From the NCBI GenBank assembly GCA_963699235.1, contig OY969424.1, positions 20,311 through 84,310 of the forward strand: a stretch of DNA of 64,000 nucleotides, in the 5' to 3' direction. Positions 44,133 to 55,692 of this stretch are shown here, one piece after another. Made by a program: the position numbers and the translations under genes. This DNA comes from an uncultured Chloroflexia bacterium (lineage in GTDB: Bacteria > Chloroflexota > Limnocylindria > QHBO01). Under the pieces are notes generated by a model. The model saw only the letters and a list, made by a program, of their open reading frames with translations. It was not told the origin of the DNA and did not search any database. Within the stretch, counting starts at the first letter, position 1. Each line of letters starts with the position of its first letter.

Positions 44133-45731
44133 ATGGCCGTCCTGCCCTCCGCGGTCGATCCTGCCTCCGAGACCTTTTCCGCCAACGCGGATGCGATGCG
44201 CGCGCTTGTCGAGGACCTGCGCAAGCGGACTGCCCGCGTCACAGGTGCCGGCGCCGGAGGCGACGAGAAGGCCATCGCCCGTCACCGCGAGCGCGGCAAG
44301 CTCCTCGTTCGCGAGCGCGTTTACCAGCTGATCGACCCCGGCTCGGCGTTCCTCGAGCTGTCCGCCTTGGCCGCCAACGGACTGTACGACGATGACGCGC
44401 CAGGTGCCGGCATCGTCACCGGCATCGGTCGGGTGGAGGGGGTCGAATGCGTGATCGTGGCCAACGACGCCACGGTCAAGGGCGGCACCTACTACCCGAT
44501 GACCGTCAAGAAGCACCTCCGGGCCCAGGAGATCGCGCTCGAGAACCGGCTGCCGTGCCTGTACCTGGTGGACAGCGGCGGGGCGTTTCTGCCGCTCCAG
44601 GACGAGGTGTTCCCCGACAAGGACGACTTCGGCCGCATCTTCTTCAACCAGGCCCAGCTGTCCTCGCGGGGGATCCCGCAGATCGCCATCGTGATGGGCC
44701 AGTCCACCGCCGGCGGGGCGTACGTGCCGGCCATGAGCGACGAAGCCGTGATCGTCCGCGGGACGGGAGCCATCTTCATCGGCGGCCCGCCCCTGGTGAA
44801 GGCCGCCACCGGCGAAGAAGTGACGGCCGAGGAGCTGGGTGGGGCGGAGGTCCACACCGTGACCAGCGGCGTGGCCGACCACTACGCCCTGACCGATGAG
44901 CACGCCCTGGCCATCGGTCGCTCCATCGTGCGCAACCTCGCCTGGCGCAAGCCCGAGCCGCCGTGGGAGACGACCGCCCCTCGGCCGCCATCGGTCGATC
45001 CCGAGGAGCTGTACGGGGTCATCCCGGCCGACCCGCGCCGGTCGTACGACGTCCACGAGGTCATCGCCCGCCTGGTGGACGACAGCGAGCTCCACGAGTT
45101 CAAGGAGCGGTACGGGGAGACCCTCGTGTGCGGGTTCGCCCGGCTTGAGGGCTACCCGGTCGGAATCCTGGCCAACAACGGGATCCTGTTCCGCGAGTCG
45201 GCACTGAAGGGCGCCCACTTCATCGAGCTCGCCTCGCAGCGGAAGATCCCGCTCGTGTTCCTCCAGAACATCACCGGCTTCATGGTCGGGCGTGAGTACG
45301 AGGCCGGCGGGCTGGCCAAGGACGGGGCCAAGCTGGTGACCGCGGTCTCGACCACCGCGGTGCCCAAGTTCACGGTCATCATCGGCGGCTCGTTCGGGGC
45401 CGGGAACTACGGCATGGCGGGTCGTGCGTACAGCCCCCGCCAGCTGTGGATGTGGCCGAACAGCCGGATCAGCGTCATGGGAGGGCCGCAGGCGGCCCGA
45501 GTCCTGTCCACCGTCCGCGGCGACTTCGAGACCGATGCCGAGCGCGACGCCTTCGAGGCGCCGATCCTGGCCGAGTACGACCGCCAGGGCTCGCCGTATT
45601 ACTCCACCGCCCGGCTGTGGGACGACGGGGTGATCGACCCGATGGACACTCGCCGCGTGCTGGCGATGGGCATCAGCGCCGCGCTGAACGACGTCATTCC
45701 CGAGACGCGCTTCGGCGTGTTCCGAATGTAG
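44133..45731 (+). CDS. mccB: Methylcrotonoyl-CoA carboxylase beta subunit (carboxyltransferase)
   Basis: [55 protein letters not shown]. Confidence 0.93.
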
Positions 45732-45779: not shown

Positions 45780-46202
45780 ATGATCAGTCTCGGGGTCCTG
45801 CTCGTGGTCCTGGGGGTTGGCTCGCTCGTCCTGCCGGCCCTGAACCTTCAGCTCCAGCTGATAGAGATCGTGGACCCGTACCAGCCGTGGGCCGGCGTCA
45901 TCGTCGCCGCGGTCGGCCTCATTACGATCCTGTTCGGCGCCCAGCGTCGCGGCCGAAAGGCCGCCGAGCCGGCCCAGGCGACTGCCACCGCGGTGGCCCC
46001 TGCCGCTCCAGCGGCGGCTGCTCCCCCACCGGCTGCTCCCCCACCCGCAGTCGAGCCACAAGCGGCCCCGGTCGCCCCGGCCTCCACGGCCTGGCCCGAG
46101 ACCGCGACCGCACCGCCGACCGCTGGGACCACGCCGCCCGCGGCGCCGGAGCCCGAGAGCAAACCCTGGCCCACGGACCCTCCGGAGCGTCACGACGACT
46201 AG
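45780..46202 (+). CDS. Hypothetical membrane protein with Ala/Pro-rich tail
   Basis: GGAGG SD; two TM followed by low-complexity tail. Confidence 0.65.
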   Translation: MISLGVLLVVLGVGSLVLPALNLQLQLIEIVDPYQPWAGVIVAAVGLITILFGAQRRGRKAAEPAQATATAVAPAAPAAAAPPPAAPPPAVEPQAAPVAPASTAWPETATAPPTAGTTPPAAPEPESKPWPTDPPERHDD

Positions 46203-46995
46203 CGACGAGGAGCGGCCGCTCCCCGGCTCCCACGAGCGCGGCGTCCCGACGGGGACCCTGGAGGAGAGCGCGGTCGCCCTGTACGAGGCCGCGATCGCGG
46301 CCCGCGACGCCGAGGGCGGCGATGATCCCGCCCCGCTCCGCGCGTTCTACCGTGCGATCGGGGGGGCAACCCTCCTGCTGCCGGTCCCGCCCGGGACCGA
46401 GCAGGAGGCGCAGGCCGCGGTCGACCGGGCGGTGGACGACGACGAGGAGGTCGAGGTCGGCGTGCTCCTCGGCCGCGGGACCGATGGCGCCCCGGTCAGC
46501 GTGGCTTTCGGCTCCTACGCCGCCCTGGCTGCCTGGTCCCCGCTGGGATCCACGTCTCTTGCGCTCCCGGCACGGATCGCGCTGACCAACCTGGCGAATG
46601 CCGGCATGCCGGTCATCCTGGATCCGGCCGGGCCGATTCCCTATCGGTTCGAGCCCGACGAGATCGCGGCCCTGGCCGCCGGTCGGATGCCGGGGGCCGA
46701 CGAGCCGCTGTTCAGCACCAACGGCGGGAGCTCGATCCGGGTTCGACTTCCCGGGCCCGAGGCGCGCGAAACCGAGCGCCGACTGGCGTCGGAGCTGGCG
46801 GAATGGCCGGGGCTGCGCGAGGCATACCTGGTCGAGGCCGACACCGGCTCCGGCTGGGGGCTGCTCCTGGGCCTGGTCGGCGGAGGCGGACCGATGCCGC
46901 CGCTTCCCAACGACGTCGAGGCGCTCTGGCTCGCCGAGCCGCTGCTCGGCAGCGTCCGGGCCGTATCGGACCCGTTCCACCGCGGCCACCGGTGA
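46195..46995 (+). CDS. SseB-family protein; non-canonical (ACG) start proposed
   Basis: LRAFYRAIGGATLLLPVP, then VAFGSYAALAAW; coding frame is open well upstream of the first GTG (46432). Confidence 0.65.
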   Translation, partial: TTSDEERPLPGSHERGVPTGTLEESAVALYEAAIAARDAEGGDDPAPLRAFYRAIGGATLLLPVPPGTEQEAQAAVDRAVDDDEEVEVGVLLGRGTDGAPVSVAFGSYAALAAWSPLGSTSLALPARIALTNLANAGMPVILDPAGPIPYRFEPDEIAALAAGRMPGADEPLFSTNGGSSIRVRLPGPEARETERRLASELAEWPGLREAYLVEADTGSGWGLLLGLVGGGGPMPPLPNDVEALWLAEPLLGSVRAVSDPFHRGHR

Positions 46996-47789
46996 GCGCT
47001 CCGCTCCGGGTCGAGCGCATCGGTCCGGTGGCCCGGATCATCCTGGACCGGCCGGAGGTCAGGAACGCGTTCAACGCCGAGCTCATCGCCGCCCTGACCG
47101 CCACGTTCGTCGGCCTTGGACAGGAGTCCCCGGAGGCGCTTCGCGTCGTCGTCCTGGCCGGGGACGGGCAGGTGTTCTGCGCCGGAGCCGACGTCGCGTG
47201 GATGCGCGCCGCGGCGGACCTTGACCGTGACGCGAACGAGGCCGACGCCGGCCGGCTGGCGACCATGCTCGACGCCATCGACACCTGCCCGGTACCGGTC
47301 GTGACCCGGGTCCACGGCGCCGCCCTGGGAGGCGGGATGGGCTTGTGCGCGGTGTCGGACATCGTGATCAGCACCGCTGACGCGATGTTCGGCTTCACCG
47401 AGACCCGGCTCGGCATCCTGCCGGCCGTGATCGGGCCGTACGCGCTGGCCAAGATCGGGGAGAGCCAGGCCCGGGCGCTGTTCCTTACCGGGAGCCGATT
47501 CGGTGCGGAGCGGGCGAAGGAGATCGGGCTCGTCCACGAGGTCGTCGCGGACGAGGCAGCGGCGGACACACGGATGGCCGAACTGATCGAGGAGCTGCTC
47601 GCGGCGGGGCCGACCGCGGTTCGCGAGGCAAAGGCGCTCATCCGCCGGCTGCGGGGGCAGCCCGGACCGCAGGCACAGGCCCTGACGGTGGCCGCCATTT
47701 CCCGGCAGCGGACGAGCCCCGAGGGCCAGGAAGGGCTTTCGGCGTTCCTCGAGAGGCGGAGTCCGGCCTGGAAGGACACGACGCGTTGA
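46992..47789 (+). CDS. liuC: Enoyl-CoA hydratase family (methylglutaconyl-CoA hydratase-like)
   Basis: RPEVRNAFN, FCAGADV, GAALGGGMGL..VSD, FGFTETRLG; position in leucine cluster. Confidence 0.85.
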   Translation: MSAPLRVERIGPVARIILDRPEVRNAFNAELIAALTATFVGLGQESPEALRVVVLAGDGQVFCAGADVAWMRAAADLDRDANEADAGRLATMLDAIDTCPVPVVTRVHGAALGGGMGLCAVSDIVISTADAMFGFTETRLGILPAVIGPYALAKIGESQARALFLTGSRFGAERAKEIGLVHEVVADEAAADTRMAELIEELLAAGPTAVREAKALIRRLRGQPGPQAQALTVAAISRQRTSPEGQEGLSAFLERRSPAWKDTTR

Positions 47790-48169
47790 CCACAACTGGG
47801 CTCTCCGGCTCCATGCGGTTGGCCGCCGGGCTGGTGGGGCTGATGGGCCTGATCCTCGTCGGCAGCGGTGTCTATTCCTTCGTCGAGGCGCTGTTCCTCA
47901 CACAGTCGATGCAATTCGGCCTGATCGTCGGACCCATCTTGGTGCTTGCCGGCCTCCCCGGCGTCATCGCGTTCGGGCTCCTCTGGCGGGAGGGCCGTGG
48001 GTGGCGGCTGGCGGTGGCCTGGAGCGCTGCCATGTTGCTCCTGGCGGTCTGGAGCATCCTGAGCGTGATCCTGTCGCCAGGTACCCACGGTCCACCGCCC
48101 GTTTCCGTGGTCTGGGCCATCGCGTCCGCCGTGGCATTGGTCACCCTGCTCATCGCGAGGACCCGCTGA
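47786..48169 (+). CDS. Hypothetical membrane protein (about 4 TM)
   Basis: Hydrophobic ORF, TTGA overlap with hydratase. Confidence 0.6.
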   Translation: MTTTGLSGSMRLAAGLVGLMGLILVGSGVYSFVEALFLTQSMQFGLIVGPILVLAGLPGVIAFGLLWREGRGWRLAVAWSAAMLLLAVWSILSVILSPGTHGPPPVSVVWAIASAVALVTLLIARTR

Positions 48170-48202
48170 CAAGCTCGAGTTGACCCCTGCGACAATCGCG
48201 AC

Positions 48203-50191
48203 GTGCGCGACGAGCTGACCCCTCGAGAAGTTGCCCTGGAGCTGGGGGTCACCGTTCGAACCGTCCAGCGCTGGATTGCGACCGGGCGCCTGGCAGGCAG
48301 CCGGGTCGGCGGCCGAATGCGCGTTCCGCGCAGCGCGCTGGCAGCCGTCACCGGGGCCGAGCCGGCGGCGGGCCCGCGCGAGATCCACGCGCTCCTGATC
48401 GCCAACCGCGGGGAGATCGCGGCGCGGATCGGGCGGACGGCGGAGCGGCTCAGGATGCGCGTCATCCGGGTCCATGAGCCCGATGAGCCGGCTCCCGCGG
48501 ACGGCGACCTCGCCTTCCCCATCCGCTCATACCTCGATGCCGACGCGGTCATCGACGCGGCGCTCCGCTGCGGGGCGGATGCCGTTCACCCCGGCTACGG
48601 TTTCCTGGCCGAGAACGCCGACTTCGCCGACGCTGTGGCTCGGGCCGGCCTGGTATGGGTCGGCCCGCCCCCGGACGCGATCCGGGCGATGGGCGACAAG
48701 GCTGCGGCCCGCCGGCTTGCGACGGCCAGCGGCGTGGCGGTCGTCCCCGGCTACGACGACGCCGACCAGGACGACGCCTCGCTGACCGACGCCGCTCCCG
48801 GGGTCGGGTTCCCGCTCCTGGTCAAGCCGGCCGGTGGTGGTGGCGGCAAGGGAATGCGCGTGGTGCGCGCGGCTGGCGACCTCGCCGATGCACTGGCTGC
48901 CAGCCGGCGGGAAGCGGAGGCCGGATTCGCCAACGATCGGCTTATCCTCGAGCGCCTCCTGGAAGGCCCACGCCATGTCGAGGTCCAGGTCCTGTTCGAC
49001 ACGCACGGCAATGGCGTTCATCTGGGCGAGCGCGACTGCAGTGCCCAACGGCGCCAGCAGAAGATCCTCGAGGAAGCCCCCGCGCCGTCGGTCGGCGCCC
49101 GGCTGCGGGCGGAGCTGGGAAACGCGGCCCTGACGGTGGCGGCCGCCGCGGGCTACGTCGGGGTCGGCACCGCCGAGTTCCTGGTGACCGATGACGGGGA
49201 GTTCTTCTTCCTCGAGATGAACACACGCCTCCAGGTCGAGCATCCCGTCACCGAGGGGGTGACCGGCCGCGACCTCGTGGCCGACCAGCTGCGGATCGCG
49301 GCCGGGGACCATCTCGGCATTGACCAGGCCGCGATCCGGATCACCGGTCATGCGATCGAAGCCCGGGTCTACGCCGAGGACCCCGAGAACGGCTTCCTGC
49401 CCGCCACTGGCCGGGTCGTGGACCTGCGCTGGCCCAGTGGCGAGGGGATCCGGGTCGATGCCGGCGTGGACGCCGGCGACCTGGTGTCGGACCGATACGA
49501 CCCACTGCTGGCCAAGGTCATTGCCCATGGCCATACCCGGGCCCAAGCCATCGACCGCCTTCGCGGGGCACTGGCGGAAACGCGAGTTCTAGGGGTGCGG
49601 ACCAACCTCCGCTTCCTGCGCTGGCTGGTCGACCAGCCGGCGACCCGCAACGGGGAGCTCCGGACCGATACCCTCGCCAAGCTCGACCTCCCCGGCCCGG
49701 TCCAGCTCCCCGAGACCGCCTGGCGCTCGGCCGCCGCCCTCTTCGTCGACCCTGGCGCCGGACCGTGGAGCGGCGGATGGCGTCTGAATGCCGCGCCGGC
49801 AATTCGGCTGGCGCAGGGAGACCAGGTGCGGGCCGCCGCGCCGCTCCCCGGGTTGCCGGCCGCGCGGCACGGCGATGCCGCGCATGTCGAGGTCGAGGGT
49901 CAGTCACTCGAGTTCCGGCTTGCCCCGCCACCCGCGGTCGAGGAGGCGGTGCGCCACGCGGCTCAAGCCGCCGGCACGGCCGTCCTGGTGGCGCCCATGC
50001 CGGGACGGGTGCGGGCCGTGCACTACCGGACGGGCGACCAGGTCGCGGCCCATGCCCCGGTGGTCGTCCTGGAGGCGATGAAGATGGAGCACGCGATCAG
50101 TGCGCCGCTGGCAGGCATGGTCAGCGCTGTGCACGTCCGGCCCGGCGATCAGGTCCAGCGCGGCGACCTCCTGGCCGAGGTGTCAGCGTAG
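48203..50191 (+). CDS. mccA: Biotin-dependent carboxylase alpha subunit (MCC alpha: BC+BCCP) with N-terminal HTH_17/excisionase-like DNA-binding domain
   Basis: aa 4-50 LTPREVALELGVTVRTVQRWIATGRL...RVGGRMRV; then LIANRGEIA, HPGYGFLAEN, GGGGKGMR, EMNTRLQVEHPVTE, EAMKMEH. Confidence 0.9.
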   Translation: MRDELTPREVALELGVTVRTVQRWIATGRLAGSRVGGRMRVPRSALAAVTGAEPAAGPREIHALLIANRGEIAARIGRTAERLRMRVIRVHEPDEPAPADGDLAFPIRSYLDADAVIDAALRCGADAVHPGYGFLAENADFADAVARAGLVWVGPPPDAIRAMGDKAAARRLATASGVAVVPGYDDADQDDASLTDAAPGVGFPLLVKPAGGGGGKGMRVVRAAGDLADALAASRREAEAGFANDRLILERLLEGPRHVEVQVLFDTHGNGVHLGERDCSAQRRQQKILEEAPAPSVGARLRAELGNAALTVAAAAGYVGVGTAEFLVTDDGEFFFLEMNTRLQVEHPVTEGVTGRDLVADQLRIAAGDHLGIDQAAIRITGHAIEARVYAEDPENGFLPATGRVVDLRWPSGEGIRVDAGVDAGDLVSDRYDPLLAKVIAHGHTRAQAIDRLRGALAETRVLGVRTNLRFLRWLVDQPATRNGELRTDTLAKLDLPGPVQLPETAWRSAAALFVDPGAGPWSGGWRLNAAPAIRLAQGDQVRAAAPLPGLPAARHGDAAHVEVEGQSLEFRLAPPPAVEEAVRHAAQAAGTAVLVAPMPGRVRAVHYRTGDQVAAHAPVVVLEAMKMEHAISAPLAGMVSAVHVRPGDQVQRGDLLAEVSA

Positions 50192-50203: not shown

Positions 50204-51106
50204 ATGACCCACGTCGACGTCCGGGTCTACGAGGTTGGCCCGCGCGATGGGCTGCAGAACGAAGCCACACCGATCGCGACCGAGACCAAGCTCGCATTCA
50301 TTACCCAGCTTGCCGACGCGGGCTTGCGCGAGATCGAGGCCACCTCGTTCGTCTCCCCCGGCGCCATTCCCCAGCTTGCCGATGCCGACGAGCTGATGGC
50401 TGCCCTCGATCGACGGCCGGGAGTTCGCTACCCGGTCCTCGTCCCCAATGCCCGCGGCCTGGAACGAGCGATCACCGCCAGGGTCGACGCGGTCTGCGTG
50501 TTCACCGCGGCGTCCGAGACGTTCACCCGCCACAACATCGGGATGTCCATCGCCGAATCCCTGGCCGCGTTCGAGCCGGTGGTGGCCCATGCCCGGCGCG
50601 AGGGGTGGTGGATCCGGGGCTACCTGTCCACCGCCTTCGGCTGCCCCTACGAAGGACCGATTGCCGAGCGGGCCGTGGTGGAAGTGGCCGAACAACTGCT
50701 GGCCCTGGGCGTGGACGAGCTGAGCATCGGTGACACGATCGGGGTGGCCGGACCGGCTGACGTGCGGCGGGTGGTCGGCGCCCTCACCGCGGCCGGCATC
50801 GAACCGGACCGGCTGGCGATGCACTTCCATGACACGCGCGGCACGGCAGTCGCCAACGTGGCGACTGCGCTCGGGCTGGACATCCGCTGCTTCGACGCCA
50901 GCACCGGTGGCACCGGCGGCTGCCCGTACGCACCGGGTGCCGCCGGCAACCTGGCGACCGAGGATCTCGTGTATCTGCTCGACCGGGAGGGGCTTCGCCA
51001 CGGGCTGGACCTCGACGAGATCCTGGGCGCGGCCCGCTTCATCGCCGAGGCTCTGGGCAAGCCGCTCGCTTCCAAGGTGGGTCAGGCCAGCGGCTGGCCA
51101 GCGTAG
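50204..51106 (+). CDS. hmgL: Hydroxymethylglutaryl-CoA lyase
   Basis: EVGPRDGLQNE, SFVSP..IPQLAD, HFHDTRG, GGCPYAPGAAGNLATED. Confidence 0.95.
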   Translation: MTHVDVRVYEVGPRDGLQNEATPIATETKLAFITQLADAGLREIEATSFVSPGAIPQLADADELMAALDRRPGVRYPVLVPNARGLERAITARVDAVCVFTAASETFTRHNIGMSIAESLAAFEPVVAHARREGWWIRGYLSTAFGCPYEGPIAERAVVEVAEQLLALGVDELSIGDTIGVAGPADVRRVVGALTAAGIEPDRLAMHFHDTRGTAVANVATALGLDIRCFDASTGGTGGCPYAPGAAGNLATEDLVYLLDREGLRHGLDLDEILGAARFIAEALGKPLASKVGQASGWPA

Positions 51107-51117
51107 GATTGCGACCG

Positions 51118-52083
51118 ATGGCCGACGCCCAGACCGATCGGCGCCCGGTGATCCTGGATGTCGATACCGGGATCGACGACATGGTGGCGCTGCTCATCGC
51201 CGCCACCGCGCCCGAGCTGAACCTGCGGGGCGTGACCTGCGTCGCCGGCAACGTCGAGCTCCAGTACGTGGCCCGCAACACCGGCTCCCTGCTCCAGCTC
51301 GTGGGGCGGGGCGACGTGCCGGTCTCGATCGGGGCTGCGCGGCCGCTCACCCGCCGGCTGCGGACCGCGCCGGAGACCCACGGACCGACCGGCACCGGCT
51401 ACGCCGAGCTGCGGGGCGAGCAACGGGCCCTGGAAACGACCGACTTCACCGCCGTCCCCGCCGCGCGCTACCTCGAGGCTCACCTCACCCGCCATCCGGG
51501 CGAGATGACGATCGTGGCCACCGGGCCGCTGACCAACGTGGCCTCGGCCGCCAACAACGGGGTGGACCTGGCGGGCGGCGCCCGGGAGGTCATCTGGATG
51601 GGTGGCGCGCTGTCGGTCCGGGGCAACACGACCGAGCACGGGGAGTGGAACGCCTGCGTGGATCCGGAGGCCGCCGAGATCTGCCTCTCCGGCGGAGCCG
51701 TGGACCGCATCTTTCCGCTTGATGCCACCCAGCAGGTGGTCTTCACCCTCGAGGACCTGGACCGCTTGCCCGCCACGGACCTGGCGGACCTGGTCCGCGA
51801 CGCGCTCCGCTTCTACGTCGGGTACCACCGCGTGGCGGACGGGATCGACGGCTGCTACCTGCACGACCCGGTCACCGTGGTCGGGGCGCTGCTCCGCCCG
51901 GACCTGGTCACTGCCAGCCAGGACCATCGCCTGACCTGCGACACCGCCACCGACCCCGCCGTGGCGGGCACCATCCGCCCGGCCGAGAACGATCCGCGCC
52001 CGGCCCTGAACGTCGTCACCGCCATCAACGGACCGGCCATGCACGAGGAGATCCTCGATCGCCTGACCCGTGCCGTGGCCTGA
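51118..52083 (+). CDS. Nucleoside hydrolase (IUNH family)
   Basis: DVDTGIDD, GNV, TGPLTN, MGG, EWN..VDPEAA, LHDP. Confidence 0.92.
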   Translation: MADAQTDRRPVILDVDTGIDDMVALLIAATAPELNLRGVTCVAGNVELQYVARNTGSLLQLVGRGDVPVSIGAARPLTRRLRTAPETHGPTGTGYAELRGEQRALETTDFTAVPAARYLEAHLTRHPGEMTIVATGPLTNVASAANNGVDLAGGAREVIWMGGALSVRGNTTEHGEWNACVDPEAAEICLSGGAVDRIFPLDATQQVVFTLEDLDRLPATDLADLVRDALRFYVGYHRVADGIDGCYLHDPVTVVGALLRPDLVTASQDHRLTCDTATDPAVAGTIRPAENDPRPALNVVTAINGPAMHEEILDRLTRAVA

Positions 52084-52111
52084 GCCCCAGCCGAACCGGA
52101 GGACAACACTG

Positions 52112-53275
52112 ATGACCACCGAGGAACGCCCGGCCGACGCCGTCGCCGAGCCTGGCCGCGGTACCGATGGAGGCGGCTGGATGCGGGCTGCGATCGGCGT
52201 CATCGTCTTCCTGCTCGTCACCGCCGCGGGGATCGTGGCCTTCGGCCAGTTCGGGGAAGGCGAGGTGGACCCGAACACCGGCGCCAACGCGACCGCGGCC
52301 AACTCGTTTGCCCTGATCCTCGCCATCGCGATGCTGGTCGGGACCGCCGTCATGCTGCTCCTGGAGCGGATCCAGACCGGCCACTTCGGGTCGTTGTCGC
52401 GGCAGTTCACGCTCCGCGTCGTGGTCCTCATGCCGTTCGCGATCGCGATCAACATCGTCCTCGGCCAGACCGTGGCCGCCGCGCTGAAGATCCCGATCTA
52501 CCTCGACTCGATCGGCACCATCCTGGTCGGCGTCCTGGCCGGCCCCATCGCCGGGGCCGCCACCGGGGCCCTGGGCAACCTCCTGTGGGCGTACGTCGTC
52601 CCGCCGCCCTTCCAGTACCCGCCAGCCGCCGCCTTCGCGGTGGTGGCCGCGATCATCGGCATCGCGGCCGGCCTGGCCGGCCGCTACGGCGTGCTGCGGC
52701 CGCGTACCGAGCGGCCAATCGGCCAGCTCATCGTGGCCGGCGTCCTCGTCGGGGGGATCATCATCGGCCTGGCGTGGCTGGCGGCAGCCGGCTACACCCT
52801 CATCTTCGGCACCGACGTGAACCCGCTGCCATCGAGCGACAACCAGCTGTTCCTGGTCCTGGGCTACGTGGCCGCCCTGCTGGTGGTGGCCGCCGTGCTC
52901 GGCACGTTCGCGCTGCTGTTCGGGCGCCGCGACCTGACGGCCGCCTACGCGGTCGTCACCGGGGTGGTGACCGGCATCGTGGCCGCCCTGATCAGCGCGC
53001 CGATCGCCGCCAGCGTGTTCGGCGGGGTCACCGGTGCCGGGACGGACTTCCTGGTCGCCGCCTTCCGCCAAGCCGGGCTGGACATCTACGCCGCCACGAC
53101 CGGGCAGGGACTCATCAGCGACCCCATCGACAAAGCCGTGACGTTCGTCCTCGTCTACCTCATCACCGTGGCGATGGCTGTCCGGCTCAAGGCCCGCTTC
53201 CCCCAGGGTGAGCAGCTCATCGAGGAGCCGGCCGAGCCCGACGCGAGCGTGCGGACAGCGGGGGGCACGGGCTGA
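52112..53275 (+). CDS. ECF transporter substrate-specific (S) component, enlarged
   Basis: IAINIVLG, LKIPIYLDSIGTILVGVLAGP..G, GGVTGAG, SDPIDK; in operon with T, A and A' genes. Confidence 0.8.
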   Translation: MTTEERPADAVAEPGRGTDGGGWMRAAIGVIVFLLVTAAGIVAFGQFGEGEVDPNTGANATAANSFALILAIAMLVGTAVMLLLERIQTGHFGSLSRQFTLRVVVLMPFAIAINIVLGQTVAAALKIPIYLDSIGTILVGVLAGPIAGAATGALGNLLWAYVVPPPFQYPPAAAFAVVAAIIGIAAGLAGRYGVLRPRTERPIGQLIVAGVLVGGIIIGLAWLAAAGYTLIFGTDVNPLPSSDNQLFLVLGYVAALLVVAAVLGTFALLFGRRDLTAAYAVVTGVVTGIVAALISAPIAASVFGGVTGAGTDFLVAAFRQAGLDIYAATTGQGLISDPIDKAVTFVLVYLITVAMAVRLKARFPQGEQLIEEPAEPDASVRTAGGTG

Positions 53276-54078
53276 GCGACGCGGCCGAGCCGGCGGCGCC
53301 GGCGTTCCTCGTCCCGCCGACGCCCACCGCCTGGCATCGGCTCAACCCGCTGACCCGGCTGGTGGCGGCCACCGTCACCGCCGTCAATGCCACGATCCTG
53401 GGCGGCGTCGTCGGTCCCGTTGGCCTGACCCTGTTCGCTGTCCTCCTGCCAGGCGCGATGGCCGGGGTCCTGCCCCGCCTCCTCCGGGTGGGGATGCTCC
53501 TCGCGCTGCCGTTGGCGGTCAGCGTCTTCGTCGTCAACCTGTTCTTCTATCCGTCGGGCTCGACGGTCCTGTTCGCGATCGGCCCCATCACTGCCACCTC
53601 GGAAGGCCTGGCCTACGCCATCGAGACCCTGGTCCGGCTGGTGGCCATCACCGGCGCCCTCGCCCTGTTCTACCTGACCACCCCGATCGGGTCGCTGGTG
53701 GTGGACCTCGAGCGGCGCGGCGTCAGCCCGCGGCTGGCGTTCGTGGTCAGCGCTTCGGTGCGGACCATCCCGGCCACCCTCGAGCGGGCCGGCCAGATCG
53801 CCGACGCCCAGCGCGCCCGCGGACTCGACACCGAGGGCAGCCCCTGGCGGCGCCTCCGTGGGCTCGTCCCCCTCGTCGGCCCGGTGTTGCTGGGCTCCAT
53901 CAGCGAGGTCGAGGACCGCGCGATGGCCCTCGAGGCCCGCGGCTTCTCACGCCCCGGCCGCCGCTCGCTCCTCTGGTTCCCCGCCGATCGCCTCGTGGAA
54001 CGGGTCGCCCGCTGGCTGATGGTCCTGTCCGTTCCCGCCCTGGTCATCGCCGGCTTCGCCGGCTGGCTGCCGCGGTGA
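53272..54078 (+). CDS. ECF transporter transmembrane (T) component; CTG start proposed
   Basis: HRLNPLTRL upstream of first GTG; AQRARG and MALEARG coupling motifs. Confidence 0.85.
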   Translation: MSDAAEPAAPAFLVPPTPTAWHRLNPLTRLVAATVTAVNATILGGVVGPVGLTLFAVLLPGAMAGVLPRLLRVGMLLALPLAVSVFVVNLFFYPSGSTVLFAIGPITATSEGLAYAIETLVRLVAITGALALFYLTTPIGSLVVDLERRGVSPRLAFVVSASVRTIPATLERAGQIADAQRARGLDTEGSPWRRLRGLVPLVGPVLLGSISEVEDRAMALEARGFSRPGRRSLLWFPADRLVERVARWLMVLSVPALVIAGFAGWLPR

Positions 54079-54082
54079 CCAG

Positions 54083-54880
54083 GTGCTGACCCTGACGGGT
54101 GTCACGTACCGATACGCTGGCTCGGCCCGGCCGTCGCTGACCGATGTCTCGCTGACGCTTGGACCGGGCGAGGTGGTCGGTGTTATCGGCCCGAACGAGG
54201 CGGGCAAGTCCACGCTGTGCCTGGTGGCCGCCGGCCTGGCACCCCGGGCCGTGGGCGGGACCCTCAGCGGCTCGGTCCAGGTCGATGGCCGGGACCTGGC
54301 GGCGGTGCCGGCCGGTGAGCTGGCGGCGCGGGTGGGCATCGGCTTCGCGACGGCAACGCTGAGCGGGATCTGCTCGACGGTGTACGAGGAGGTGGCCTTC
54401 GGACCGATGAACCTGGGACTCCCCCGGATCGAGGTCATGCAGCGGACCGAGGAGGCGATGCGGGCCGTGGCCATCGCGGACCTCGCCGAGCGCGACCCGG
54501 AGCGCCTGTCCGGCGGCCAGCGACAGCTCGTCGCGATGGCCGGGGTGCTGGCAATGCAGCCCGCCCATCTCGTGCTCGACGAGCCCACGGCCATGCTCGA
54601 TCCCTCCGGCACGCGGCTGGTGGGCGAAGCCATCGCGGCCCTGGCGGCCGGAGGGGCCTCCATCCTCATCGCCGAGCAGAAGACCGATCTGCTGGCCGCC
54701 ATCTGCACACGCGCCGTCGTCCTGGCCGAAGGGCGCGCCGTCCTCCTGGGCGAGGCGACCGCGGTCCTGGCCGACCCGGTCCTCGAGAAGCTCGGGGTTG
54801 ATCCCCCGACATCGGTCCGGCTGGCTCGACTGGCCGGCGCCGCCGGCCTGGATCCCGCGCGCCTGGTCGTGCCGGCATGA
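54083..54880 (+). CDS. ECF ATPase A (partly degenerate)
   Basis: GPNEAGKST, EEVAFG, LSGGQRQ, LDEPT, IAEQK. Confidence 0.88.
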   Translation: MLTLTGVTYRYAGSARPSLTDVSLTLGPGEVVGVIGPNEAGKSTLCLVAAGLAPRAVGGTLSGSVQVDGRDLAAVPAGELAARVGIGFATATLSGICSTVYEEVAFGPMNLGLPRIEVMQRTEEAMRAVAIADLAERDPERLSGGQRQLVAMAGVLAMQPAHLVLDEPTAMLDPSGTRLVGEAIAALAAGGASILIAEQKTDLLAAICTRAVVLAEGRAVLLGEATAVLADPVLEKLGVDPPTSVRLARLAGAAGLDPARLVVPA

Positions 54881-55692
54881 TCGACCTCGTCGTCGAGGAC
54901 CTCGTCCACGAGTACCCCGGCGGCGTACGAGCGCTGGACGGCGTGAGCCTGCGGTTCGGTGCCGGCGAGGCGGTGGCACTGGTGGGGCAGAACGGGTCGG
55001 GCAAGACGACTCTCGTCCGCCACCTGAACGGGTTGCTGCGACCGACGGCCGGCCGGGTGCTCGTCGGCGGGACCGATGCGGCCGGCCTGCGGGTGGCCGC
55101 CCTGGCGCGGCAGGTGGGCCTCGTCTTCCAGGACCCCGATCGCCAGATCTTCGCCGGCACCGTTCGACGCGAGGTCGAGTTCGGGCCGCGGAACGTCGGG
55201 CTGCGCGGGGCGGCGCTGGACGAGGCGGTGCGGTCGGCGCTGGCGGCCGTGGGCCTGGACGGCCTGGAGGCCACGAACCCCTACGACCTGGGTGCCGCTC
55301 GTCGCAAGCTGCTGGCCATCGCCTCGGTCGTGGCGATGGAGACGCCAGTCCTCGTCCTGGACGAGCCCACGACCGGGCAGGATCGGGCGGGTGTCGGCCG
55401 CATCCACGACCTCTTGAGCCGGGCGGTGGATCAGGGTCGGACCGTCATCGCCGTCAGCCACGACCTGCGGTTCGTGGCCGAGACCTTCCCCCGGGTCGCG
55501 GTCCTGCGCGCCGGGCGGGTGGTCCTGGACGGGCCGCCGGGCGAGGTCTTCGCGGCGGGAAACCGGGCGGCGCTGGCCGAGACCGGACTGGAGCCGCCTG
55601 CGGCGGCCGAGCTGGCTGATCGGCTCGGGGTTGGACCGGTGGCGACCGAGGCGGAACTGGTCGCCGCGGTGGTGAGGGCGGGGGCGGGCTGA
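54877..55692 (+). CDS. ECF ATPase A'
   Basis: GQNGSGKTT, VFQDPDRQIF, NPYDL, LDEPTTGQD, VSHD. Confidence 0.9.
   Translation: MIDLVVEDLVHEYPGGVRALDGVSLRFGAGEAVALVGQNGSGKTTLVRHLNGLLRPTAGRVLVGGTDAAGLRVAALARQVGLVFQDPDRQIFAGTVRREVEFGPRNVGLRGAALDEAVRSALAAVGLDGLEATNPYDLGAARRKLLAIASVVAMETPVLVLDEPTTGQDRAGVGRIHDLLSRAVDQGRTVIAVSHDLRFVAETFPRVAVLRAGRVVLDGPPGEVFAAGNRAALAETGLEPPAAAELADRLGVGPVATEAELVAAVVRAGAG

Follow-up and report, generated by a model that had tools for sequence, protein, structure and literature searches.

Does a DNA-binding domain carried at the N-terminus of a metabolic enzyme control the very gene that encodes it? The question is raised by a gene in a 64,000-nucleotide stretch of the genome of an uncultured Chloroflexia bacterium (contig OY969424.1, positions 20,311 to 84,310; hereafter the window, to which coordinates refer unless a contig or locus is given), which encodes the alpha subunit of a putative 3-methylcrotonyl-CoA carboxylase (MCC) fused to a helix-turn-helix (HTH) domain of the HTH_17 family. 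The gene, defined by its open reading frame (ORF), translation, domain matches and homologues, occupies positions 48203..50191 of the + strand and specifies a protein of 662 aa. The patterns of sequence conservation that we describe incline us, if only slightly, toward an answer in which the fused HTH would repress transcription of the alpha gene alone and would not control the whole cluster of leucine-catabolism (liu) genes.

The ORF of the alpha gene opens at a GTG, the earliest start codon past an in-frame stop, and no stop codon separates the HTH from the carboxylase in the reading frame of 48203-50191. The N-terminal winged HTH (aa 5-48; 48215..48346, + strand), with recognition helix VRTVQRWI, was delimited with Pfam, AlphaFold2 (AF2), Foldseek, invariant alignment columns and the ratio of nonsynonymous to synonymous substitution rates (dN/dS). 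It matched the Pfam model HTH_17 (PF12728) over aa 5-48 with 42.8 bits against a cut-off of 27, and the fusion protein matched the NCBIfam model TIGR01764 ('excise') with 39.8 bits against a cut-off of 28.8; the MerR model of Pfam scored 16.6 bits on the HTH, under its cut-off. A flexible linker of 12 aa (aa 49-60; 48347..48382, + strand), apparent in the alignment of N-termini, in dN/dS and in the predicted local distance difference test (pLDDT) of the structural model, leads to the biotin carboxylase (aa 61-493; 48383..49681, + strand). Its N, ATP-grasp and C domains were matched by Biotin_carb_N at 61-160 (E-value 2.7e-28), CPSase_L_D2 at 165-372 (2.5e-64) and Biotin_carb_C at 386-492 (7.2e-37). 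The biotinyl or biotin carboxyl carrier protein (BCCP) domain with its EAMKMEH motif follows at aa 595-659 (49985..50179, + strand; Biotin_lipoyl, 3e-15). The set of domains that marks an MCC alpha subunit, the three parts of biotin carboxylase plus a biotinyl domain with AMKM, is present, and these matches bear out the initial annotation of the locus, which had described an HTH_17-type N-terminus joined in frame to an intact carboxylase and BCCP. In an alignment of 96 sequences, the glycine loop and EMNTRLQVEHPVTE of the biotin carboxylase and residues E624 to H630 of the biotinyl domain are invariant. No NCBIfam equivalog cut-off was reached by the carboxylase, and 3-methylcrotonyl-CoA, as opposed to geranyl-CoA, propionyl-CoA or others, is assigned as its likely substrate from genomic context only. 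An internal start at the ATG of codon 39 (M39), the sole in-frame candidate before the carboxylase, was rejected; the codon lies inside the HTH and specifies Val in most homologues. The protein places a catalytic domain and a domain with a predicted DNA-binding role on one polypeptide, the architecture of a trigger enzyme.

The fusion is widespread among relatives of the organism. When homologues were scored on residues 1-75 only, 675 proteins of comparable length were retrieved, and in 120 of the 120 matches listed PF12728 was combined with the carboxylase domains. The homologues come from metagenome-assembled genomes (MAGs) of Chloroflexota or Ca. Limnocylindria and, where named, are labeled 'excisionase family DNA binding protein' or alpha subunit of MCC or acetyl-CoA carboxylase. 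A second search with a diverged member as query gave the same picture. In the public collections searched, the Ca. Limnocylindria MAGs derive from soil and water metagenomes, and the lineage is uncultured. We also surveyed 301 genomes of the class, counting matches that run from residue 1-7 through the carboxylase. The fusion was found in about 95 of the 104 genomes of the window's family, in all genera, and in about half of the genera of a sister family, and was absent from two other families of the class. From 80 species-representative Ca. Limnocylindria loci (named records), 76 had enough sequence and 74 of these were fused. The alignment of 120 N-termini showed a nearly invariant HTH and a linker variable in both sequence and length (10-20 aa), and dN/dS estimates (Nei-Gojobori, 377 pairs) were 0.19 for the HTH, 0.67 for the linker and 0.26 for the biotin carboxylase, values that indicate purifying selection on the HTH. 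Since the same architecture recurs in hundreds of related genomes, the comparison establishes at the sequence level that the fusion is real and translated as a single protein, beyond chance or gene-calling error.

The fold of the domain and its contact residues indicate how it may read DNA. The closest solved proteins by sequence in the PDB are the Xis protein of mycobacteriophage Pukovnik and DNA-bound BldC. The AF2 model of the domain (pLDDT 84.7) consists of a short strand (aa 4-5), two helices, a two-strand wing and a third helix, and the full-length model, built on the 96-sequence alignment, reached a pLDDT of 91, with 85-93 in the HTH and about 63 in the linker. The full-length model comes without an inter-domain error map, and the docking of the HTH on the enzyme is not readable from it. 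The top Foldseek matches were BldC (6amk/6ama; template modeling score, TM, 0.72-0.76, 36-37% identity) and Pukovnik Xis (4j2n; TM 0.80), followed lower in the list by RdfS (8dgl), SoxR and RacA; E-values were modest because the domain is small. The model has the MerR-like winged HTH of the BldC family, free of effector domain and followed directly by a disordered linker, and no coiled coil appears anywhere in the full-length model. BldC binds 9-bp direct repeats of the form AATTXXXX(C) in head-to-tail fashion, with Lys26 and Arg30 of the recognition helix contacting bases and the wing inserted in the AT-rich minor groove (PMC5859096). These two residues align with R19 and R23 of the fusion, which together with V21, Q22 and W24 are invariant across three diverged fusion subgroups (96 and 29 sequences). 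The fused HTH is a member of HTH_17 that is BldC-like by fold and contact residues. It is however not a stand-alone BldC of about 70 aa, as it forms the N-terminus of a 662-aa protein.

A candidate operator is found at the promoter of the alpha gene itself. Conservation of the upstream region revealed three head-to-tail 9-bp units, CCCTGCGAC, AATCGCGAC and GTGCGCGAC (48185..48211, + strand), with copies of GCGAC at 48189, 48198 and 48207, which overlap a -10-like GACAAT (48191-48196) and the GTG start codon. The 16 bases directly before the start codon, CTGCGACAATCGCGAC (48187-48202), are conserved. Identity is 90-100% at -16 to -1 versus 40-55% farther upstream (29/30 family loci), and (C/T)GCGACAATCGCGAC abuts an ATG or GTG, again in 29 of 30. 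The sequence 5' of the 16-mer is unalignable among the 30 loci, where even the upstream gene differs. The middle unit, AATCGCGAC, fits AAT(T)XXXXC. The third unit, GTGCGCGAC, is built from the first three codons of the fusion gene and takes the form ATGnnCGAY in other genera, which may be the reason for the conserved Asp at position 3 of the protein. Wherever coordinates are comparable, the 14-mer core is located at the fusion gene's 5' end. It occurs in a single copy in 49 of 61 family genomes and in two copies in two, whereas a reversed 14-mer used as control had 0 matches in all 61; this near-uniqueness does not support a wide regulon for the exact site. Other occurrences were recorded as well. 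A second exact copy of GCGACAATCGCGAC (C1:1856582-1856595, - strand), intergenic and located between two beta-helix-like genes, is probably due to chance because it was not found in other genomes of the genus, and a near-match, TGGGACAATCGTGAC followed by ATG, at C1:656095 is not interpretable. An inverted GTCGCG[CT]TCGTCGC, the reverse complement of two CGAC units with a 9-bp period, lies at +122/+125 in 14 loci of other genera (including L011, L013, L016, L017, L020-L022, L024-L028 and L030); it falls in the codons for SRSS of the HTH wing and is absent in the window's genus.

The setting of the element is that of a leaderless gene. In this genome, TANNNT has its first base at -12/-13 in 113 of 1405 ORF starts (76 + 37), against about 3 per other offset. 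At these offsets the motif, mostly in the form TAGNNT, precedes about 8% of confident ORF starts, and a further class of genes is led by a Shine-Dalgarno (SD) sequence. The enrichment of the motif 12-13 nt before ORF starts implies that leaderless transcripts are common. The general leaderless promoters of the genome conserve only T-12, A-11 and T-7. The alpha gene had been credited with a -10 box of its own, GACAAT, 6 nt before the GTG. Its place and spacing stand, being the preferred -10 position for leaderless genes, but the first base is G instead of T and thus a weak one. No SD sequence precedes the alpha gene, and the conserved motif occupies its place. The alpha promoter is probably leaderless. 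Given the correct geometry of GACAAT and the lack of an SD sequence, the candidate operator would span the -10 box, the start site of transcription and the start codon, the position expected of a repressor.

The sister family offers a further view of the repeats. Its first subgroup carries TGCGAC[AG][ACT]TCGCG[ACT]C located 3-4 nt 5' of the ATG, and its second subgroup has a canonical TTGACR-N17-GACATT-N6-9-start promoter in which the spacer and the -10 box are made of (G/A)CGAC(A/G)AAC and GCGACATT units. These are the same CGAC 9-bp repeats in another register, displaced by one unit with respect to the -10 box, and because of this shift the repeats are not simply a -10 box. A hairpin or RNA element was also considered and rejected, as the palindrome GCGA-CAA-TCGC is not kept in the sister family while the direct repeat is; Rfam gave no match. 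Note that one sister-family MAG (L051; G197:C4:12700-23200) has both HTH and promoter repeats with the HTH out of frame with the carboxylase, either because of an assembly frameshift or because the gene is genuinely split in two (a 'Rosetta stone' partner).

Is the element confined to the alpha gene, and does it follow the HTH in evolution? The gene for MCC beta, the carboxyltransferase (44133..45731, + strand; Pfam Carboxyl_trans, 3.7e-151), has a generic leaderless-type promoter (CATAAT, 8 nt, ATG). GCGAC repeats are absent from it here and in 11 relatives, the promoters of this set showing CATAAT, TATCAT or TATGAT, and an operator shared with the beta, hydratase or lyase genes was rejected since the repeats were found upstream of none of them. 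The two promoters that had been put forward as binding sites therefore differ: the one at 48.2 kb carries conserved repeats of the BldC mode and the one at 44.1 kb, that of MCC beta, does not, so that a fusion taking the place of LiuR across the liu cluster finds no backing in these loci. Ten genuine MCC alpha orthologues, all situated in liu clusters of the class, lack the HTH. In the 400 nt upstream of these genes there is no GCGAC-N4-GCGAC pair, and about 10 kb of sequence at each of the ten is free of the R[TS]VQRW signature. In a tree of the enzyme part (FastTree estimate), the fused proteins form one clade with Shimodaira-Hasegawa-like support of 0.88, within which five HTH-less proteins, all without repeats, are nested at four places (local supports 0.72-0.98). 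This nesting suggests one gain and at least four losses of the HTH, and with each loss the repeats disappeared too. The element, conserved, present in one copy at the enzyme's own promoter and lost together with the HTH, is a candidate for the specific operator of a trigger enzyme, with occupancy predicted only.

Arrays of this type have a second location. The pattern GCGAC-N4-GCGAC-N4-GCGAC occurs only twice in the 2.09-Mb genome, at the alpha gene and at C1:256908-256930 (L066:909-931; GCGACAGATGCGACAGATGCGAC), 29 nt upstream of the SD sequence and GTG of gyrA. The gyrA array is composed of three perfect 9-bp units (GCGACAGAT, again GCGACAGAT, then GCGAC). Equivalent arrays, GCGACA[GTC]A[CT] in three to four units, precede gyrA in the six other genomes of the genus examined. 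Elsewhere in the family, six further genera have arrays of two to three CGAC units before gyrA and four genera have none; outside the family, all 20 genomes, seven of which bear the fusion, lack them. The gyrA array could be a second target acquired in the family, or could be the sign of another protein that reads such arrays. The genome also encodes a protein with an N-terminal HTH_17, several GAF domains and GGDEF (C1:384189-387153, - strand) and an HTH_17-TOBE protein directly upstream of modA/modB-like genes (modABC; C1:162112-162258, + strand), and because of these proteins N-terminal HTH_17 fusions are best described as a habit of the lineage.

Our preferred reading, autorepression of the alpha gene, would operate as follows. 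MCC alpha would be bifunctional, with a biotin carboxylase/BCCP body tethered by the flexible 10-20-aa linker to a winged helix of BldC/Xis type. Two to three HTH protomers would bind head-to-tail on the 9-bp direct repeats, with CGAC as core and AAT before the core in the middle unit, so that the -10 element, transcription start and start codon of their own, probably leaderless, promoter would lie beneath them. Binding would block RNA polymerase, and the alpha subunit would in this way limit its own synthesis in a loop of negative autoregulation. Binding of the element by the HTH, repression as its outcome and any dependence on assembly, biotinylation or substrate are inferred; that one of these three signals controls binding by alpha is pure conjecture.

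Several observations weigh against this proposal. All data come from MAGs of a single class, and the co-occurrence of HTH and repeats is partly phylogenetic for that reason. The element overlaps the -10 box, and part of its conservation is consequently a matter of promoter function. The gyrA array shows that arrays are not exclusive to the alpha gene and lowers our confidence in the fused HTH as their reader, and the genome encodes a stand-alone HTH_17 protein of ~60 aa (C1:879781-879933, + strand). Five of the ten HTH-less orthologues directly follow their upstream gene, and since such genes need no promoter the missing element is less telling in these cases. One genome (G036; L019/L113) keeps the fused HTH without the element, and its gene abuts the hydratase stop. 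Finally, the regulation of alpha but not beta has no obvious rationale.

Some of these observations acquire weight in rival explanations. The CGAC arrays may be read as operators by another DNA-binding protein, be it the stand-alone HTH_17 protein or some other factor, in which case the fused HTH would bind elsewhere, bind non-specifically, or tether the enzyme to the nucleoid. We regard this scenario as unlikely though worth serious attention. The conserved array before gyrA, a gene unlinked to leucine catabolism, and the existence of the stand-alone gene at C1:879781 both fit it. However, in at least four losses of the fused HTH the alpha-gene array went with it, and this array also occurs in the sister family, whose gyrA genes lack one; the recognition helix of the stand-alone protein differs from that of the fusion (VNTVKRL versus VRTVQRW), and the invariant CGAC core matches the invariant R19/Q22/R23. 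It is rather improbable that the conserved 16-mer is a specialized promoter or leaderless-initiation element and nothing else, with the HTH either serving a role at the protein level (assembly, or interaction with beta or with biotin ligase) or persisting as a neutral relic. Such an explanation would account for a GACAAT placed exactly at the -10 position of the genome's leaderless genes and for a motif in SD position, but ordinary leaderless promoters keep T-12, A-11 and T-7 only while here the whole segment from -16 to -1 is conserved, and with the one-unit shift of the sister-family repeat one copy cannot be the -10 box. That the HTH has the lowest dN/dS of the protein and invariant DNA-contact residues moreover argues against a relic.

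The broader proposal, that the fusion is a master regulator of the whole liu cluster that replaces LiuR at the 44.1 and 48.2 kb promoters and responds to biotinylation, acyl-CoA or holoenzyme assembly, appears very improbable. Genes for LiuR, TetR or MerR are not found near the cluster and fusion to an enzyme would permit sensing, but the absence of repeats at the MCC beta promoter of the window and its 11 relatives, and likewise at hydratase and lyase genes, and a 14-mer that occurs once per genome speak against it. We give almost no credence to an artefact in which a sequencing error or the loss of a stop codon joined a small regulator gene to the carboxylase gene. Frame breaks do exist in a few MAGs (the sister-family locus with the HTH in another frame, and truncations in G090, G192 and G135), but hundreds of independent assemblies have the same unbroken frame, no internal start is conserved, and purifying selection acts on the HTH; recurrence and HTH dN/dS together refute the artefact. 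An extension of autorepression also deserves mention, although we judge it decidedly improbable: a true trigger enzyme with DNA binding that depends on assembly or biotinylation, and that in the window's family would also bind the gyrA array. Alpha subunits in free form would build up into a polymer on the three-unit array and so stop the production of alpha; once taken up into the alpha6-beta6 particle, the subunits would have their HTHs drawn away from one another.

The surroundings of the alpha gene are those of leucine catabolism. MCC beta, methylglutaconyl-CoA hydratase and 3-hydroxy-3-methylglutaryl-CoA (HMG-CoA) lyase accompany alpha here and in 30 related loci. The enoyl-CoA hydratase of methylglutaconyl-CoA type (46803..47789, + strand; Pfam ECH_1, 4.9e-48, and tblastn synteny) probably has its true start near 46980. 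The HMG-CoA lyase gene (50204..51106, + strand; Pfam HMGL-like, 3.8e-42) lies immediately 3' of the alpha gene in nearly all relatives. A 127-aa membrane ORF without family assignment (47786..48169, + strand; ORF list and Pfam) separates hydratase and alpha genes. Domain scans of neighboring genes revealed no separate regulator gene (LiuR, TetR or MerR) near the cluster, and no isovaleryl-CoA dehydrogenase gene was found within it. No integrase, att site or mobile element is nearby, the neighbors being metabolic and membrane genes. Small unrelated ORFs interleave the liu genes (45780-46995 and 47786-48169), namely a 140-aa Pro/Ala-rich membrane protein, a 187-aa SseB-like protein and the 127-aa membrane protein. 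Farther on, a nucleoside hydrolase (51109-52083) is followed by a probable transporter module of energy-coupling factor type (52070-55692), with a weak match to an S component (28 bits, under the cut-off) and then a membrane ORF and two ORFs resembling ABC (ATP-binding cassette) ATPases, which were assigned by reading translations only.

How does the fusion compare with known systems? BldC of Streptomyces (6ama, 6amk), founder of the small MerR-like winged HTH regulators, shares with it a fold free of coiled-coil and effector domains, base-contacting residues (K26/R30, conserved as R19/R23), and the use of head-to-tail 9-bp direct repeats, an AT-rich part plus C in BldC and a candidate array with middle unit AATCGCGAC here. 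Unlike the fusion, BldC exists as a free protein of 68 aa that has AT-rich repeats and governs a large developmental regulon, whereas the candidate core here is GC-rich (CGAC), essentially single-copy and bound by prediction only. The HTH_17 excisionases or recombination directionality factors (Pukovnik Xis, RdfS) provide the best fold match and oligomerise head-to-tail on direct repeats, much like the arrangement proposed for the HTH. They differ in that the domain is here fused to a metabolic enzyme and lacks the company of integrase, att site or mobile element. BirA, PutA and NadR are the textbook enzyme-regulator fusions, with direct metabolic feedback on transcription. BirA, a group II biotin protein ligase, is likewise tied to biotin metabolism, and archaeal RbkR (5trd) was among the weak Foldseek matches of the HTH. 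However, the winged HTH of BirA dimerises on a palindrome and PutA uses a ribbon-helix-helix, DNA-binding folds unlike that of the fusion, and the link between catalysis and binding demonstrated for BirA, PutA, NadR and RbkR would here be conjectural. By analogy, the fusion would work like BldC or Xis at the level of DNA and like BirA or PutA at the level of the system. Proteobacterial LiuR is reportedly a protein of its own, a dimeric full-length MerR with a coiled coil, and recognises palindromic sites in front of several operons for leucine and isovalerate catabolism. A MerR-related HTH is associated with liu genes in both cases, but the fusion has no coiled coil and its direct repeats are found only at the alpha gene.

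The literature searched contains no description of a carboxylase-HTH fusion, and more generally none of an enzyme-regulator fusion for a biotin-dependent carboxylase or of a BldC-type domain on an enzyme. The initial view that the fusion was undescribed holds in that sense, although the proteins were already present in public databases under the name 'excisionase family DNA binding protein'. The system is compact, a 50-aa domain and a 27-bp candidate site with one copy in the genome. It could reveal how direct repeats are read by BldC-like domains that are attached to a large oligomeric enzyme, and whether autogenous transcriptional control sets the subunit stoichiometry of a holoenzyme of the 750-kDa class. 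Were the HTH to bind the three-to-four-unit gyrA array as well, leucine catabolism or biotin status would be coupled to the expression of DNA gyrase. Autorepression of the alpha gene would rank among the first regulatory circuits inferred for Ca. Limnocylindria.

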